Assembly (NCBI GenBank): GCA_964016885.1
Contig: OZ024755.1
Coordinates: forward strand, 7,502,001-7,566,000
Length of the DNA stretch: 64,000 nt
Origin: Eledone cirrhosa
Lineage: Eukaryota
Direction of reading: 5' to 3'
The notes below the pieces were generated by a model that saw only the letters and a list, made by a program, of their open reading frames with translations, was not told the origin of the DNA and did no database searches. The translations under genes were made by a program, and so were the position numbers. Every line of letters starts with the position of its first letter. Positions within the stretch are counted from its first letter, which is position 1. Positions 710 through 17,639 of this stretch are shown here, piece by piece.

Positions 710-761
710 TAGATAGATAGATACTATATGTGAATTTAATATAATGTTATATATATTTCAG

Positions 762-930
762 ATTGTGTGTCAAGTCTTCGCCATCCTTCTACATTATTTT
801 TTCTTGGCAACATATTCTTGGATCATGAACGAAGCATTTAATCTCTACATAGTAATTACATATTCTGCACATTCGCATCGAGATTCAAACGAGTCTGGTT
901 CATTGATGCGGTATTATATCATTGGATGGA
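762..930 (+). CDS. Adhesion GPCR exon B (TM3-ICL2-start of TM4)
   Basis: tttcag acceptor, gtaagt donor at 931. IVCQVFAILLHYFFLATYSWIMNEAFNLY...RYYIIGW matches the LHYFFLA.F.WM..E and Y..GW motifs. 169 nt, ends in phase 1. Confidence 0.93.
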
Positions 931-1014
931 GTAAGTATTTAACCTTTTTGATACTAAAATACCTGAAACTGCTCCTTGTTCCAGAAAACTGTAATTTTGT
1001 GATTTTATATCTAA

Positions 1015-1200
1015 AGGAACGATCGACTTTCGCAAATCGGATCGAGGAAACAATGTTTCCAATTGCTAATACTATCTATCGGTCGCAACGTAAAATAAAA
1101 TGTCTTGTTCAAGGACATAAGGCATCGCCCGGTCTGGGAATCAAATTCACCACCTCACAATTGCGAATCAAATTCTCTAACCATTCCGCCACCCGCCTTC
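1015..1200 (-). mobile_element. Second tRNA-derived SINE family (related copy at about 60990-61200)
   Basis: Minus strand starts ggcgggtggcggaatggttagag..gaatttgattccc..gtccttgaacaagaca. Both copies share ggaaacaatgtttcca..cggtcgcaac. Confidence 0.65.
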
Positions 1201-1811
1201 ATAAATCGATATAAACAGAATCTTAATAACGAGAAAATCCCCAATTCGACTCCTAGATTGTTTTCAAAATAATTTCAAAATAATTTCAAAATCATTGACA
1301 GTATATCTCAGTAAAAATATGGTAACGAAAGGGGGGCAAGAATGGCAACAGGCCCTAAAATGTTGCCTCAAATAGGAATTCCTAATAAGTATGAAGCCTG
1401 AACCGGGACCCACAAGGTTCACTCCTGTTTTAGGTGGAAAATTGTTTCAAAATGGCTTTTTTTCTTTGTCTTTTCTTTTGTGTGCCTGACTCTATGTTAC
1501 CCCAATGTAAAGAATGAACAAATTAACCAAATATACGTTATATTTGACTGAACAAGGGAAGTAAGTTTGATGGAGTTATGTCCCATGTATCCTAATACTT
1601 TTATAATGAATCATTTTTGGTTTTATTGATGCGTCAAATTGGGATATCCTGCCGAGGTTAGCTTTAGCCTTTCGTTCGTACATGATCAATAAAACAAAGT
1701 AGCAGTTATACACTGGAGTCGATCTAATCGACTTTCCCCTCCCTCAAAATTGTTGGCCTTGTGCCTAAATCAGAAACTTTTATTTAACTAACTTACCATG
1801 TGTCGTGGTGT

Positions 1812-2308: not shown

Positions 2309-5300
2309 GCAATAATAATAATAACGACAACAACAATAATAATATACATATTCATATATATATACACACACACGCACGCACACAAGCATATCTACACACA
2401 CACACACACACAAACACACGATAGCAACTAACAGTGCTGCGATCGAATGTGGCTTTTTAGCCCAGCCAATGATCTAAAATGTCTTGCACAGAGTCGGCAA
2501 CCAAAACATTTACTGGGAATAGTCGGCTGTGGTTGGAGTTCGTGTACTTTTGCATGTCGCTTGAGTCCTCCTGCTGATTTACATTCTCTACCACATGTTT
2601 GGCAAGCATGATGAGTAGCATCTCCAACAGCAGCCTGGTAGTCAACCACTGGTCTTACTTTATGACTGCGAAGATGACTTTCGAGTCCAGCTTTGCTTAG
2701 GCAGAGTCTCGCACAGACGCTGCATGTCAGAAACATAGGAGGACCCTCGCCGTCTGGAAGTGCAACAGCAATACCCTTCCTCACGTCCCGCTTTACTTTC
2801 TCGTGTGCGATTCGAGATGCCTCAAAGGCAACTTTTCCCTCATATACAGTCTTTCTCCATTTATTACGATCAGCAGCAATATTTTCCCATGTATCAGCAG
2901 AGATGTTAGCGTCTTTCAGAGAGGCTTTCAAGGAATCCTTATACCTCTTTTTTGGTTTATGTGGCGGTCGTTTTCCTTTAACCAACTCTCCATAGAAGAG
3001 TTGTTTTGGTATTCTAGAATCCTTCATCCTGGCAAGGTGACCACTCCAACGGAGTCGCTGCTTAAGCACAAGAGCTTCTATACTGTCACACATAGAGCTT
3101 TCCAAAATCTCGACATCACTGATGTGGTCCCTCCAGCGAACGCCATGTATCCGTCTGAGACACATCTGATGGAAACGCTCCAATTGCTTAAGGTGGCGTC
3201 GATATGCGACCCAGGTCTCGCAGGCATAAAGAAGACAAGAGAGTACACATGCCCTGTACACCCTTACCTTTGTCCTCCTGCATATGTCTCGCCGACCCCA
3301 GAGTCGCCTTTCTAGCTTTCCGAAAGCATCACTTGCTTTCCTAATCCTAAGTGAGATTTCACTGTCAAGGTTGCCGTATCGATTGACAGTGCTTCCCAGG
3401 TAGACAAACTGATCAACCACTCCAAGTCGTCTGCCATACACATAGATGTTTGGTTCAGTGTACTGCCCACCAGGTGCAGGTTGGTACATGACGACGGTTT
3501 TCTTGAGACTGACAGTCAAACCCAGGGCAGTGCAAGCGTCAGAAAATACATTCAAAATGTGCTGCATATCACTCTCTGTGTGCGCTACAAGATCGCAATC
3601 ATCTGCATACAAGAGGTCTCTTATGACTGATGTAAATACTTTTGTCTTCGCAGCAAAGCGCCTGATGTTAAATATGCTGCCTGAGGTTCGATATCGGATG
3701 TAAACACCATGCTCGCAATTCCTGAATGCAATACAGAAAACCATTGCAAAGTATATGGCAAACAGGGTCGGTGCTGGAATATCCCCCTGTTTCACTCCAT
3801 TTTTTACTGAGATAGGCTCCGACATGTTACCTCCGACATTAACCCAAGCCTTCATGTCGTCATGGAAAGACCTAACTAAAGCAAGGAACTTATCAGGGCA
3901 ACCAAGTTTCTGGAGAACCTTCCATAATGCATCTCTGTTGACAGTATCGAAAGCCTTTGTCAGATCGACAAAAACCTGATACAGATCCAAGCCCTGTTCA
4001 ATGCACTTCTCCTGGAGCTGTCTAGCTGAGAAGATCATATCAGTAGTGCCGCGTCCAACACGAAAACCAGATTGACTTTCAGGAAGGACACAATCTGCAA
4101 TGTGTGTCAGCAGACGGTCCAGAAGCACCCTACATAAAACTTTCCCCACGACAGAAAGCAATGATATACCTCTGTAGTTCCCACAATCATTCCTGTTACC
4201 CTTTCCCTTGTACAAGACCACCATTACTGCATCTCTCCAGTCCTCAGGCACGGATTCATTAGCCCATATCCTTCCAAACAGAGAGTGAAGATGTTGCAGG
4301 AGTCTCTCACCACCATATTGTAGGAGCTCAGCATGTATGCCATCCATACCTGGAGATCTTCCACTGTTCAGCTTCGAAATAGCCACTGCAACCTCCACAA
4401 GTGTCGGAGGTTCTGCGAGAGCTACTTTCACAGGACTTTCCGGAATGAGATTGAGGAAATCTTCACTGACGACAGACGGCTGATTCAAAAGATCATCAAA
4501 GTGCTCTCGCCACCTTCGTAGAATTCCCTGTGAGTCACGAAGAAGTTCTCTGCCATCCTTGCTGCGAATCGGTGTCACCAGAGAAGAAGACGGTCCATAA
4601 ACCTCACGCAAGAGACTGTACAACAGCTTTGTGTTATTGCAATCAGACGCAGTTTGTATCTCACTAGCCTTCTCACTCCACCACTGATCCTTCATCTGAG
4701 AAAGACTCCGCCTAACACGTGATTTTACATCCCTGAGCTCCTCATGCAACGTATTCCTCTCCTGTGGTTTTGCCGTCAAGTAGCGTGACAGAGCGCGCCT
4801 CTTATCAGCCAACAAGTCATCTATATGCACATCTTTCTCATTAAACCAGTCCTGATGTTTTCTCTGCACCAATCCCAGAACACGTCTGCCTACATCATAA
4901 ACCGACTTTTTAAGGGTCGGCCAATCCTCACCAAGATCTGCAGCCTGCATCTCTTCTTCCAATGTCCTCTTCACATTTTTATCCTTAAGACGAGCAGCAT
5001 TCAATCTTTTGGGCAGGGTAACACCAGGAGCCCGGATTTTACGTTTGGTGATTAGATTCACTTTTGCGCGTACCAGGCGGTGGTCCGTCCAGCACTCAGC
5101 TCCACGAAGAACACGAACACACCGCACATCCTGTCTGTCACGCATCCTGACTAGGACGTAGTCCAAAAGATGCCATTCCTTAGATGCAGGATGCATCCAT
5201 GTGGTCTTGAATTTGTTCTTTTGTTGGAACATGGTGTTGGTAACACACAGATCCAGCTCCTCACACATCTGCAGCAAGAGCATACCATTGCTGTTACACT

Positions 5301-6015
5301 TTCCCACCCCATGCCTTCCGATTACATTCCATGTGTTAAAATCCCTACCCACTCTAGCATTAAAGTCACCAAGCACGATGACTTTGTCTGCCTGAGGGAT
5401 ATTTCTTAAAACACCTTTCAAGGCATGGTAAAAGGACAGTTTTTCTTCATCGACAGAATTCATAGTTGGAGCATACACACTCACCAGGGTAGCATATCTT
5501 CCCTTGTCCAGCGGAACTCTCATGGACATAAGACGCCCACTAATCCCCACTGGGTATTCTTCCAATTTATTCACCAGTACAGTCTTAACAGCAAATCCTA
5601 CCCCAGCCTCTCTTCTGGTTCCTTCATCTCTTCCTTTCCAGAAGAATGTATATTCTCCACAAAATTCCGTAAGATGACCATCTCCAGCTAACCTCGTCTC
5701 AGACAAAGCCACGATGTCAAGATCGTAACGTCGAAGCTCCTTTGCAACAAGAGCGGTCCTTCGTTCAGGACGCTCCAAAGAATCCCTGTCAAGCAGCGTC
5801 CGTACGTTCCAGCAGCCAAGACTAAATGCCCTGTTTGGCTCTATTACAATGGCACGATGACGGGCGGGCCCAGGTTGTGATAACTTGGGGCCCCTGCCCT
5901 TATTGCCAATGATCCTTTTTGTTCCAGAACCCAAATTGGCAATTATCTCGTTTACATTGTTCTGGAACATCATTGAATTGGAAAAAAAAAAAAAAAAAAA
6001 AAAAAAGTAATAATA

Positions 6016-6050
<35 letters not shown>

Positions 6051-9700: not shown

Positions 9701-10401
9701 CTCATCCAGGTGACCTGACTATGGGACATATCATCAGTGTCACTGGGTGTTTTGCTTCTCACGACATACACTAATCCTCATTCAATGTGACCTGTAACCA
9801 CTGGATGTTTCTGGTCTTACAACACAGCCACCCTCACTCAGTTTACCTGGCTATAGGACACACCATCAACCATGTGTTGTGTCCAGGAGTCATTGAGTGT
9901 TTCGGTTCTCACAACATACACTCTCTTTTAGGTGACCTAACTGCGAGACACATCATTGGTGTTGTATCGTGCTGTCACTGAATGTTTCAGAGGGTTTTAG
10001 AACATACACTCCCATGCAGGTGGCCCAACAGAGGTTGATTAAACCTCAGGTTGTCTCCTAGTGGCATACATACTACTAATGATGACAGTCACACTACATT
10101 CATAGTGTTTTTGATATTTGATAACACTCCTCCAACTCATTCTAGCAATACCAAACGTTTCACAGGCTTTACTAAGGACATGTAAACCATTCTCTATGAA
10201 ACTACATTAGTATGCTTGGTCCCCCATCCGTCTCGTTGCAGTTTTCTATAGTGTTAGTGTCAGTACACGACCAGTATACTTTCTTTATTCAAGTACATTC
10301 AGATATGTTCTAGGTTCATATGTAGTTTTCTGGACATTTCCACTGATATTTACAGTGATTCTTTTCTATATGCAATAAACACATTCATGGGTAATATATC
10401 T

Positions 10402-10467
<66 letters not shown>

Positions 10468-10760
10468 CAAATAACGAAACGAAATTAAATTTCGTTTCGT
10501 TTGTAACTCACTTTTGTATGACTGACGCTTAAACAATTAAGTTAAAGATGTACATCCATATATGTATACTGAAATACTAGTATGTATATGAATACACACA
10601 CGTATACATATGTAGATGTACCAAGTTTTTTTTTTCACTGGTCACTTTACTGTGAGTGGCCAGCTATTCTGTATGTAAACACACAGACAAACCGGTTTTT
10701 AGAGTCATACTGGTTTTTGAGGAAACACCTTTCCTCTATTCTCCAGAAAGCCAGACAAGG

Positions 10761-10805
10761 AATATTGAACTAGTTTCGTTGTTGTTACAACTCATCAGCA
10801 ATATT
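10761..10805 (-). ncRNA. Type I hammerhead ribozyme, copy 1
   Basis: Minus strand reads aauauug-CUGAUGA-guug(uaacaa)caac-GAAAC-ua-GUU-caauauu: 7-bp stem I, 4-bp stem II, minimal palindromic stem III (ACUAGU), GUU cleavage triplet. Confidence 0.88.
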
Positions 10806-11231
10806 TACCTATCTTCCGGCCTCTCTAGAGAATCGTAAAAGCACATATCGTTATATGCTTTTTCTATGAAAATTAGTAGTGGGCAGACTAATTTGCATAG
10901 AGTGTGAGTAAGTACCGGTTCAACGGAGACGATAAAAACAAATAACGAAACGAAATTAAATTTCGTTTCGTTTGTAACTCACTTTTGTATGACTGACGCT
11001 TAAACAATTAAGTTAAAGATGTACATCCATATATGTATACTGAAATACTAGTATGTATATGAATACACACACGTATACATATGTAGATGTACCAAGTTTT
11101 TTTTTTCACTGGTCACTTTACTGTGAGTGGCCAGCTATTCTGTATGTAAACACACAGACAAACCGGTTTTTAGAGTCATACTGGTTTTTGAGGAAACACC
11201 TTTCCTCTATTCTCCAGAAAGCCAGACAAGG

Positions 11232-11276
11232 AATATTGAACTAGTTTCGTTGTTGTTACAACTCATCAGCAATATT
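11232..11276 (-). ncRNA. Type I hammerhead ribozyme, copy 2
   Basis: Identical to copy 1, 471 nt away. Confidence 0.88.
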
Positions 11277-11701
11277 TACCTATCTTCCGGCCTCTCTAGA
11301 GAATCGTAAAAGCACATATCGTTATATGCTTTTTCTATGAAAATTAGTAGTGGGCAGACTAATTTGCATAGAGTGTGAGTAAGTACCGGTTCAACGGAGA
11401 CGATAAAAACAAATAACGAAACGAAATTAAATTTCGTTTCGTTTGTAACTCACTTTTGTATGACTGACGCTTAAACAATTAAGTTAAAGATGTACATCCA
11501 TATATGTATACTGAAATACTAGTATGTATATGAATACACACACGTATACATATGTAGATGTACCAAGTTTTTTTTTCACTGGTCACTTTACTGTGAGTGG
11601 CCAGCTATTCTGTATGTAAACACACAGACAAACCGGTTTTTAGAGTCATACTGGTTTTTGAGGAAACACCTTTCCTCTATTCTCCAGAAAGCCAGACAAG
11701 G

Positions 11702-11746
11702 AATATTGAACTAGTTTCGTTGTTGTTACAACTCATCAGCAATATT
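11702..11746 (-). ncRNA. Type I hammerhead ribozyme, copy 3
   Basis: Identical to copy 1, 470 nt from copy 2. Confidence 0.88.
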
Positions 11747-12171
11747 TACCTATCTTCCGGCCTCTCTAGAGAATCGTAAAAGCACATATCGTTATATGCT
11801 TTTTCTATGAAAATTAGTAGTGGGCAGACTAATTTGCATAGAGTGTGAGTAAGTACCGGTTCAACGGAGACGATAAAAACAAATAACGAAACGAAATTAA
11901 ATTTCGTTTCGTTTGTAACTCACTTTTGTATGACTGACGCTTAAACAATTAAGTTAAAGATGTACATCCATATATGTATACTGAAATACTAGTATGTATA
12001 TGAATACACACACGTATACATATGTAGATGTACCAAGTTTTTTTTTCACTGGTCACTTTACTGTGAGTGGCCAGCTATTCTGTATGTAAACACACAGACA
12101 AACCGGTTTTTAGAGTCATACTGGTTTTTGATGAAACACCTTTCCTCTATTCTCCAGAAAGCCAGACAAGG

Positions 12172-12216
12172 AATATTGAACTAGTTTCGTTGTTGTTACA
12201 ACTCATCAGCAATATT
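12172..12216 (-). ncRNA. Type I hammerhead ribozyme, copy 4
   Basis: Identical to copy 1, 470-nt spacing. Confidence 0.88.
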
Positions 12217-12641
12217 TACCTATCTTCCGGCCTCTCTAGAGAATCGTAAAAGCACATATCGTTATATGCTTTTTCTATGAAAATTAGTAGTGGGCAGACT
12301 AATTTGCATAGAGTGTGAGTAAGTACCGGTTCAACGGAGACGATAAAAACAAATAACGAAACGAAATTAAATTTCGTTTCGTTTGTAACTCACTTTTGTA
12401 TGACTGACGCTTAAACAATTAAGTTAAAGATGTACATCCATATATGTATACTGAAATACTAGTATGTATATGAATACACACACGTATACATATGTAGATG
12501 TACCAAGTTTTTTTTTCACTGGTCACTTTACTGTGAGTGGCCAGCTATTCTGTATGTAAACACACAGACAAACCGGTTTTTAGAGTCATACTGGTTTTTG
12601 AGGAAACACCTTTCCTCTATTCTCCAGAAAGCCAGACAAGG

Positions 12642-12686
12642 AATATTGAACTAGTTTCGTTGTTGTTACAACTCATCAGCAATATT
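12642..12686 (-). ncRNA. Type I hammerhead ribozyme, copy 5
   Basis: Identical to copy 1, 470-nt spacing. Confidence 0.88.
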
Positions 12687-12931
12687 TACCTATCTTCCGG
12701 CCTCTCTAGAGAATCGTAAAAGCACATATCGTTATATGCTTTTTCTATGAAAATTAGTAGTGGGCAGACTAATTTGCATAGAGTGTGAGTAAGTACCGGT
12801 TCAACGGAGACGATAAAAACAAATAACGAAACGAAATTAAATTTCGTTTCGTTTGTAACTCACTTTTGTATGACTGACGTTTGTAACTCACTTTTGTATG
12901 ACTAACTTAATTGTTTATATATATATATATA

Positions 12932-12964
<33 letters not shown>

Positions 12965-15059: not shown

Positions 15060-17639
15060 GTTTTTGATATGAAATCGTGTGTCGAAACAAACTAGCCAAT
15101 ATACGAAGAAATATTGTAAAAAAAAAGTTACTAACTGATATAGAAATTGATCAGATCAAGCTATTAGCACAAAGTCAGCGAAGGGAAAATGAAACATGTG
15201 TCAGTGAAAACGAGGTAAATTGTAACACTTCGAATCCCAGGGTTGGGGCGGAATCACTGACAACAGAACAAATTAAAGAAAGGATCGAAAAAGTGGAGGG
15301 AGTGCATGCTCAAGATGAAACTCCAAATGAAAACAATGAGATCGTAAATGATAAAGAAATGAATGAGAATGAACTTGCCAACTTGAAGGATGAAATTATG
15401 ATCGAATGGATGAAAATGAAAAAATCTGACATGGGGGAACGAGACACCCTCCTTAAGATCCAGAACTCCAATCAGAACCAAAAGATAATACACAAGACTA
15501 ACATAATTCTCAAAAACATTATCATCACAAACAAACTAAACATTACTGATTTAAATCATCTCTATTATGCATCGGCTAAAGTCACCACTCACTTATGTGG
15601 AGTGAAGAGGAAAAAACAAAGGAATTCCCACAAGAAATCTACTTGGCAAGAGAACATCAATCGCGAAATAAACCTTCCCCGATCTGACAGAAATTTTAAC
15701 AAACTATAAAGTAGGTGAACATGTTAAACAAACTAAGCTTAGAAAATTGAAAAGAAAGTATAGTATAAAATCAACAAGTGACATAGACATGCTGATAGAA
15801 ATAATCAAGCAAAAAGTGTCGGCCGAAGCTGCTCGTATAAGGCGCTTTGAAAAACGATCTAGATTCTATAAGGACAATAATATGTTCAAAAACAACCAAA
15901 GAAACTTCTACAGAAAAATTGGTAAATCAACAATAACTGCTAAATCAATACCACCCAGGAGGAAGTGCAAGAATTCTGGGAAAAGATCTGGGCCGAAGAA
16001 AAAGTTCATAATATACATGCCCCATGGATAGACAGACAAATGAAAGATACAGCTCACCTTGAGGAACAAATATGGGAAAATATAACAGTTGAACAGTTGC
16101 GTTTGGCTCTAAGAAAAACCAGCAAATGGAAATCCCCAGGAAAAGACAAAATATAAAATTTTTGGATAAATGCCTTCACAGAGTCTCATGAGCTGTTAGC
16201 CCAACTTTACAATGAAATAGTTAAGGAGCCAGAAAAGATACCATCGATGCCATAAACACGCTTGCCATACCAGTAGTAACCTACAGTTACAATGTCATCA
16301 ACTGGTCAAGCACAGAGATCCATAGGCTCGATATAAAAATTCGAAAATTCTTAACCATGCACAGAATGCATCACCCTAAGGCAGATACAGATAGAATATA
16401 TCTCCCTAGGAAAGAAGGAGGACGTGGGTTAATCCAGTTAGACATTGCGTTGAAAACTGCAACAATTAGATTATCTACATATCTAAGGGAATCACATGAT
16501 TGGATGATCAAACTCGTTTTGAAACACGAAAGCATCAAAAGATCATACTCCATTACAAAAGATGCACAAAGATACAGTAATGGACTACAAATTTCAGAAG
16601 TCCCATTTACTGCTGAAATGGAAAACACAGAAAAAGCAAAGCAGGTAAAAGTAACTGCAAAGAAAGAACTGCTACAGAAACTGGCTAAGAAATGGCAAGA
16701 AAAGCCTCTGTATGGAAAATACCCAGAACGAGCTAACAATCCTGATGTTAACAAAACTTTAACCCATCAGTGGTTGGCATCCTCTGGACTGAAATCGGAG
16801 ACTGAAAGACTAATTATATCAGCACAAGATCAGTGTCTGCCAACAAAAAATTACCAAGCCAACATAATAAAAAATGGATGCAGCCCATTATGCCGTGTAT
16901 GTAAAAAACAACCAGAGACCATTGACCATATAATTTCAATGTGCAGTCCTATAGCTCCAACCGAATACCTAAACAGGCATGACAGAGCTGCACAATACAT
17001 ACATTGGATAATGTGTAAGCATTTTGACCTGCCCCATCAAAAGAATTGGTGGGAGCATCAACCACCTCCCATACTTGAAAAAGATCACATCTCAATCTTG
17101 TGGAACTTTAGCATCCAAACAGACCGAAAAATAGATGCAAATAGACCTGATATAATATTGAAGGACTTTAAAAAGAGGGTATGCCTGCTAATTGATATGT
17201 CCGTTCCAATAGACAAGAATGTATCTATAAAAACATTTGAAAAATTGAGCAAGTATAAGGACCTGGAGATAGAAATTGGAAAAATGTGGAAATTGAGAAC
17301 TAAAACAATACCAGTGGTTGTAGGCGCTCTAGGAATGATACCTAAGGGGTCTAATGATTACTTATCGCAAATCCCAGGAAACCCGCGTATAGGAGAAATA
17401 CAAAAGATAGTACTAATGGGAACTGCCCATATACTAAGGAAGATTCTGTCAATATAAGTACATCACAAGTCTAAACACCTAAAGATGCATGTGTGAGTAT
17501 GTATGTTCTTTCTTGAACATGGCGGACCTTGTTGTCTCTTGAGGTCACTGGTTGTGACTTGGTGATAACTCGTATGAACATAAAGCAAGATAAATGCAGC
17601 TGTAATAATAAAAATAATAGTAATAATAATAATAATAAT

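Follow-up and report, generated by a model that had tools for sequence, protein, structure and literature searches.

The window, by which we mean the whole 64,000-nt stretch of Eledone cirrhosa DNA analysed here, contains at 10461-12879 a tandem array that TRF reads as 5.1 copies of period 470 with 99% matches. The array comprises 5.15 near-identical 470/471-nt units on the minus strand and has a GC content of 0.33-0.34; one substitution and the length of an A-run are the sole differences among its five full units. No stop-to-stop frame of at least 100 aa lies within 10461-12879, and the array carries no RT or GIY-YIG ORF. Its parts are listed below, with monomer positions numbered from the predicted cut site such that position 1 is window 11238.

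10394..10463, no strand: (TA)n target microsatellite, left flank (TRF)
10461..12879, minus: long arm, 5.15 units in tandem; its 3' end in the RNA sense is at monomer 307 (the "long" fixed end) and its inner end lies near 241
10461..10529, minus: "tail", monomer 239-307, the segment that separates the two fixed ends, lacking at the other end
10761..10805, minus: type I hammerhead 1, predicted cut 10768|10767, stem I of 7 bp, stem II of 5 bp, ACUAGU stem III
10768..11238, minus: cut-to-cut monomer of 471 nt, the predicted circle
10850..10898, minus: promoter-like block, octamer ATGCAAAT at 10898-10891 and TATA-like box at 10855-10850, 43 nt downstream; present in every unit
11232..11276, minus: hammerhead 2, predicted cut 11239|11238
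11362, 11832, 12302 and 12772, minus: further octamers of the array
11702..11746, minus: hammerhead 3, predicted cut 11709|11708
12172..12216, minus: hammerhead 4, predicted cut 12179|12178
12642..12686, minus: hammerhead 5, predicted cut 12649|12648
12880..12902, minus: 23-nt duplication of monomer ~245-267, at the junction between the arms
12903..12917, plus: short inverted second arm of 15 nt, monomer 224-238, ending at the "short" fixed end
12916..12962, no strand: (TA)n target microsatellite, right flank (TRF)

An earlier note on this DNA had described five 470-471 bp units plus a partial sixth. The five units stand, but 12880-12917 is a 23-nt duplication followed by a 15-nt inverted arm and does not continue the partial sixth unit. 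Elsewhere in the window, an apparently intact 1,206-aa LINE frame with AP endonuclease, RT and C2H2 fingers, which we take to be RTE-like, occupies 2428-6048 (minus strand), and broken frames resembling a non-LTR retrotransposon, including a 410-aa piece without a Pfam match, lie at 15068-17457 (plus strand). An exon-sized match to the secretin-family GPCR domain 7tm_2 (E 2e-10) lies at 717-1214 (plus strand); the array may sit in or near the gene to which this match belongs.

The motif CTGATGA-N-GAAACTAGT occurs exactly five times on the minus strand, at 10769, 11240, 11710, 12180 and 12650, and in none of 100 shuffles. A search with Rfam hammerhead models, which the earlier note had proposed, matches the array to HH9 with 37.7 bits and an E value of 1e-7, short of the gathering score (52), and a whole-window Rfam scan at gathering thresholds gave no match; weak sraA and miRNA matches were set aside as chance matches to AT-rich hairpins. 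Among 11 variant cores, hand-picked from repeated variants in the Eledone cirrhosa genome, pairing is kept in 96.8% of cells and both partners differ in 7 of the 12 stem I/II pairs, a level of covariation reached by 0 of 500 shuffles (a count that is not a p-value, since the sequences are related), and the catalytic core is nearly invariant. Together, the HH9 match, the five exact motifs and the covarying stems bear out a complete minus-strand type I hammerhead in each unit, as the earlier note had claimed. Its placing of the GUU|C cut between 10768 and 10767 holds, as do its 7-bp stem I and its ACUAGU palindrome; stem II is present too, with a predicted length of 5 bp and an AACA loop, not 4 bp.

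The monomer is predicted to fold far better than its shuffles (z -10.3 as a linear molecule, -10.2 as a circle); covariation over the whole unit is weak, being seen in 3 of 148 pairs among 7 close variants. The predicted fold of the monomer circle contains stems I and II but no stem III, the pairing probability being 0 for both A15.1-U16.1 and C15.2-G16.2. Two fragments, on the other hand, co-fold through the ACUAGU palindrome at a predicted -31.6 kcal/mol, compared with 2 x -14.1 kcal/mol for the fragments on their own. These predictions agree with the dimer-type stem III that the earlier note had proposed. In the predicted fold U17 lengthens the palindrome and can pair with A14, and the GUU triplet and this U17-A14 pairing may weaken cutting. 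The triplet at the cut site varies elsewhere, being GUC in older subfamilies and GUA in family B, a homologous 472-nt family; at one two-armed insertion (L055) all counted cores have GUC instead of GUU, and GUC also occurs naturally at L163. In Xenopus, one of nine predicted retrozyme dimers cut in vitro, according to the accessible text of a recent preprint (Li, Clavereau and Pollet 2026, bioRxiv 10.64898/2026.07.22.740005).

The octamer lies at monomer 341, with the TATA-like box 43 nt further on, 100 nt before CUGAUGA, and both elements are kept in family B. Genome-wide, the octamer-TATA-CTGATGA pattern has 22,304 matches, compared with 25 in the control, in at least six sequence families; L131-L140 include at least four further hammerhead repeat families with an octamer-TATA block at similar spacing. 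We found the same pair of elements upstream of host U6 genes: 7 of the 15 top loci have an octamer at -76 to -78 (two exact, five with one mismatch) and a TATA box at -30, while the octamer is absent in 6 of 15 and 2 of 15 are pseudogene-like. The exact octamer occurs in 0 of 8 distinct host U2 upstream regions. The spacing from octamer to TATA is 43 nt in the unit and 46-48 nt in host U6, that is, 3-5 nt shorter in the unit, and the unit contains T4/T5 runs that could stop Pol III. The block resembles, and probably is, an snRNA-type internal promoter. Transcription from it would start near 10825-10821 (monomer 414-418), and since the implied start lies ~55 nt before the cut, the first hammerhead of the transcript would be complete. 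Host U2 genes form a tandem cluster (G000:C3:307349256-307453739), as do variant U6 genes with two different upstream types (G000:C19:31780605-31840331).

Exact cores of the family of the window array (family A) number 9,305 across the 3.0-Gb genome, with none in the control, and exact junctions between the long end and (TA) number 2,535, again with none in the control, which sets a minimum of 2,535 insertions. A looser ACUAGU pattern, which also takes in family B, matches 23,712 times and 4 times in the control. The genome-wide copies that the earlier note had anticipated are dispersed at thousands of loci, and its description of the array as a young non-LTR retrozyme is supported as well. 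Tandem repeats with type I hammerheads are known as non-LTR retrozymes (Cervera and de la Pena 2020, PMC7229834), and we hold it nearly certain that the element described here is an animal non-LTR retrozyme. Its kind is known, but the family is new, young and abundant, and on sequence grounds the window array is one of at least 2,535 insertions of that family. We found no description of this 470-nt family in a literature search that covered subscription papers thinly. Longer and more complex arrays also occur: one of a related subfamily (L177, G000:C1:95645000-95654900) is long and satellite-like, has unit variants that alternate and shows a higher-order repeat of 9 units, and a family B array at G000:C3:12272007-12315580 has at least 75 units of variable length.

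We then read 85 insertions, made up of the 28 best-scoring loci including the window, 17 along contig C1 taken in position order from the looser ACUAGU matches, and 40 more; young and long arrays are over-represented in the first and third sets. Ends were counted over the 149 arms of these insertions. The RNA-sense 3' end falls at monomer 305-308 in 77 arms and at 232-241 in 63, or 140 of 149 in all, defining two fixed sites ~70 nt apart and a tail of 69-74 nt between them. All 59 two-armed insertions are oriented head-to-head, and 51 of the 59 have one end of each kind. Inner ends, by contrast, are spread uniformly over the unit (KS p 0.44). The permuted outer ends that the earlier note had expected were not found: outer ends lie at the two fixed sites, and only inner junctions are random. 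Some loci scored as "one-armed" carry second arms too short for BLAST, the window with its 15 nt among them. TA repeats adjoin 73 of the 78 arms checked, namely 49 of 52 in one set and 24 of 26 in the other. Family B has two fixed ends of its own, near 257 and 316, and otherwise follows the same pattern. At L056:5217-6807 an arm passes from family A to the 472-nt family B at a shared hairpin (A position ~290) and ends at the short end of family B; this arm reflects either a template switch or later recombination between two retrozyme families.

We considered Pol III termination as a general cause of the 307 end. A T5 run at 301-305 would fit, but in family A only; family B ends near 316 between T4 runs, and an array in which position 305 is G (L047) still ends there, so this explanation was rejected. 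What the ends do resemble is the footprint of Penelope-like elements (PLEs). GIY-YIG frames are abundant in the host genome (150 scored of 10,597 first-look candidates); the long frames at L081 and L084 match both RVT_1 and GIY-YIG, and that at L083 matches RVT_1; those at L081 and L083 are intact. From the cysteine linker between their domains the RT/GIY-YIG frames appear to be Neptune-like, a name we use after Craig et al. 2021 as far as its accessible text defines it. Inverted PLE copies at six loci (L086, L092, L093, L095, L098 and L100) have one long and one short end and lie in (TA)n. Published in vitro work with a PLE protein showed that it cleaves AT-rich DNA on both strands, extends each of them and initiates at two sites within the RNA, which bound the tail (Frangieh et al. 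2024, PMC11167929, accessible text). Because host PLEs have the same two-end layout and a PLE protein uses two internal start sites in vitro, we read the retrozyme ends as a PLE footprint, and mobilisation of the retrozyme by PLE-type machinery is very likely.

Retrozymes and PLEs also meet at their targets. Three of the 85 family A insertions (L036, L156 and L201) lie in (TA)n adjoining the end of an autonomous PLE, which indicates that the (TA)n target is common to both. Nested insertions in (TA)n beside PLE ends occur at L091 and L092; that at L091:6938-7157, in (TA)n at a PLE end, belongs to family A, measures 220 bp and has two arms and both fixed ends but lacks a hammerhead. PLE tails in five host families measure 37-64 nt, and none of these equals the 69-74 nt retrozyme tail exactly. 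The last 14 nt of one host PLE family (L095:7050-7063) are complementary to window 10799-10812, on the 5' side of stem I, which may be chance.

The arms also bear on the template from which they were copied. The cut site is crossed by 127 of 149 arms, and at least two cut sites by 86, and of the seven inner ends nearest the cut none stops exactly there, all running on by 3-21 nt; a cleaved linear monomer is therefore not the simple template. We compared variants at the 51 loci with four or more pieces, excluding A-run and edge positions (an exclusion that also drops the U17-to-C change of all counted L055 cores). At 13 of the 51 loci, 16 substitutions that occur at no other sampled locus are present in every unit covering the position, in both arms alike; of 131 unit-level variants, by contrast, 4 are common to both arms in register (the same rank counted from the end) within 37.9 kb of overlap. 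The locus-wide private variants, set against such rare in-register sharing, favour a one-unit bottleneck, as from a monomer circle. Two points weigh against a circle. In-register sharing is more frequent than out-of-register sharing (5 of 862), with a Fisher p of 0.02 that rises to 0.23 when the fold-back locus L182 is left out. With 85 insertions read of at least 2,535, "private" variants may moreover derive from source loci outside the sample. On balance, a circular monomer was probably the usual template.

The strongest rival retains the same element and the PLE enzyme but takes as template, in place of the circle, read-through RNA of an existing array that stays linear, multimeric and uncleaved, any circles being a by-product. 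For the anole PLE, hammerhead cleavage is not needed and unprocessed RNA is the main substrate in vitro (PMC11167929, accessible text), the GUU site may be slow, and variants common to both arms in register at L052 (rank 5) and L200 (terminal units) fit a multimeric template. Against this, in-register sharing is rare beside the 16 locus-wide variants, daughters of such a template would never be longer than their parents without extra amplification, and 13 of the 23 arms with four or more full units have no minor variants common to units. We regard the linear multimer as unlikely.

The other 10 of those 23 long arms do have minor variants common to units, which indicates that local amplification also lengthens arrays. 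Could an insertion of about one unit have grown into the whole array later by local tandem duplication, like a satellite? The preprint of Li, Clavereau and Pollet, in its accessible text, favours local duplication, higher-order repeats exist (3 units in L045, 9 units in L177), and the window units are too alike to tell at the window locus. The L045 pattern had also suggested a trimer circle, which we rejected: the pattern stops short of the neighbouring units and points to local duplication there. Yet both arms are often multimeric while precise fixed ends are kept, and the variants common to units cluster in the longest arms, which makes local duplication an improbable general account. More improbable still is a template that is never covalently closed: the RT would reach the 5' end of a cleaved linear monomer and jump from there, time after time, to a 3' end. 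Jumping would give the same unit order, and the same fixed variants if one molecule were reused, but it is opposed by the absence of stops at the cut among the seven nearest inner ends and of added bases at unit junctions.

Could the array instead be what remains of an autonomous PLE, truncated or collapsed, with the unit as its pseudo-LTR (pLTR)? PLE pLTRs bear type I hammerheads and give the same end pattern, and Xenopus retrozymes resemble pLTRs in the accessible text of the 2026 preprint. Nevertheless, among the matches listed, the unit has no homology to 40 GIY-YIG stretches, nested insertions aside, or to five PLE ends; the 40 stretches, read of 10,597 first-look candidates, are a small share of the genome's PLEs. 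Local alignments of the priming region to the five PLE ends are no better than shuffles, and no PLE ORF joined to a homologous unit was found at nine loci with other ACUAGU cores or, among the matches listed, at ten other octamer-hammerhead loci. On this sample of PLEs, we consider a pLTR origin of the array very improbable. An assembly artefact, which the low-complexity flanks might suggest, is most improbable in view of consistent anatomy at thousands of loci with differing flanks, lengths and variants.

The reading that we prefer, and think probable, is that the window array is a two-armed, head-to-head retrozyme insertion in (TA)n, pasted by a PLE enzyme and copied from a circular RNA monomer. 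Its cycle would begin with the octamer-TATA block of one unit directing a transcription start just ahead of the hammerhead. Read-through RNA would then cut as a double hammerhead, since the ACUAGU stem III requires a second copy. Monomers would be ligated, and a monomer circle, with its single hammerhead, would cut itself poorly and so stay stable. A PLE RT-GIY-YIG protein would nick both (TA)n strands and prime at monomer ~307 and 233-238; each cDNA would circle the template for a varying number of turns (giving, in the window, 5.15 units in one arm and 15 nt in the other), and the two cDNAs would be joined by short homology.

Taken as a whole, this cycle describes a self-promoting RNA circle parasite with a captured U6-type promoter, a dimer-only hammerhead, PLE priming twice on one circle and both cDNAs rolled, a combination that we put forward tentatively and rate somewhat below even. 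If true, it would give direct evidence, from a genome, that target-primed reverse transcription proceeds by rolling circle in an animal, and the element would serve as a substrate on which to test that reaction in vitro. PLEs have been proposed as retrozyme helpers from co-occurrence and pLTR similarity (accessible text of PMC7229834 and bioRxiv 10.64898/2026.07.22.740005). The family described here provides a mechanistic footprint, with priming sites, target, arm geometry and candidate promoter mapped to the base in thousands of young copies, which makes the questions "circle or linear multimer" and "which PLE" directly testable.

Among known systems, the element is most readily compared with animal non-LTR retrozymes, with which, as far as the accessible text of these reports goes, it shares tandem non-coding units with a GC content below 45%, one type I hammerhead in each, a self-paired monomer (here a prediction) and co-occurring PLEs. 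Its stem III resembles that of axolotl HHR_Amex1, which has one pair and a palindromic tetraloop and needs dimers (PMC7229834). The 470-nt unit exceeds the 170-400 nt of the retrozyme RNAs in that paper and lies within the 51-972 bp range of the 2026 preprint. That preprint argues that retrozymes derive from PLEs; unlike its retrozymes, ours showed no pLTR homology in the 40 GIY-YIG stretches and five PLE ends. Fixed priming ends, head-to-head arms and a promoter are not described in the accessible portions of these two papers, and our wider literature search, with its thin coverage of subscription papers, found neither fixed two-site ends nor a U6-like block in retrozymes.

With EN+ PLEs of the Neptune/Naiad type (10.1101/2021.04.23.441226; PMC11167929), again as far as their accessible text goes, the insertions share an arm that is inverted and truncated at its 5' end, a tail confined to one end, targets that are (TA)n or AT-rich, and two internal start sites. 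Unlike those elements they have no ORF, carry a hammerhead with a full stem II and form multimers of a 470-nt unit, and their tail is longer than the 30-40 nt of published EN+ PLEs and than those of the five host families. Newt satellite 2 and schistosome Sm-alpha offer a third comparison, since each is a tandem hammerhead repeat with a promoter in the unit ahead of the ribozyme (PMC2220036, PMC6765202, accessible text), as the candidate promoter is here. The same two papers cite reports of Pol II transcription with an snRNA promoter for newt satellite 2 and of Pol III transcription for Sm-alpha. The block in the present unit resembles the upstream region of host U6 rather than U2.
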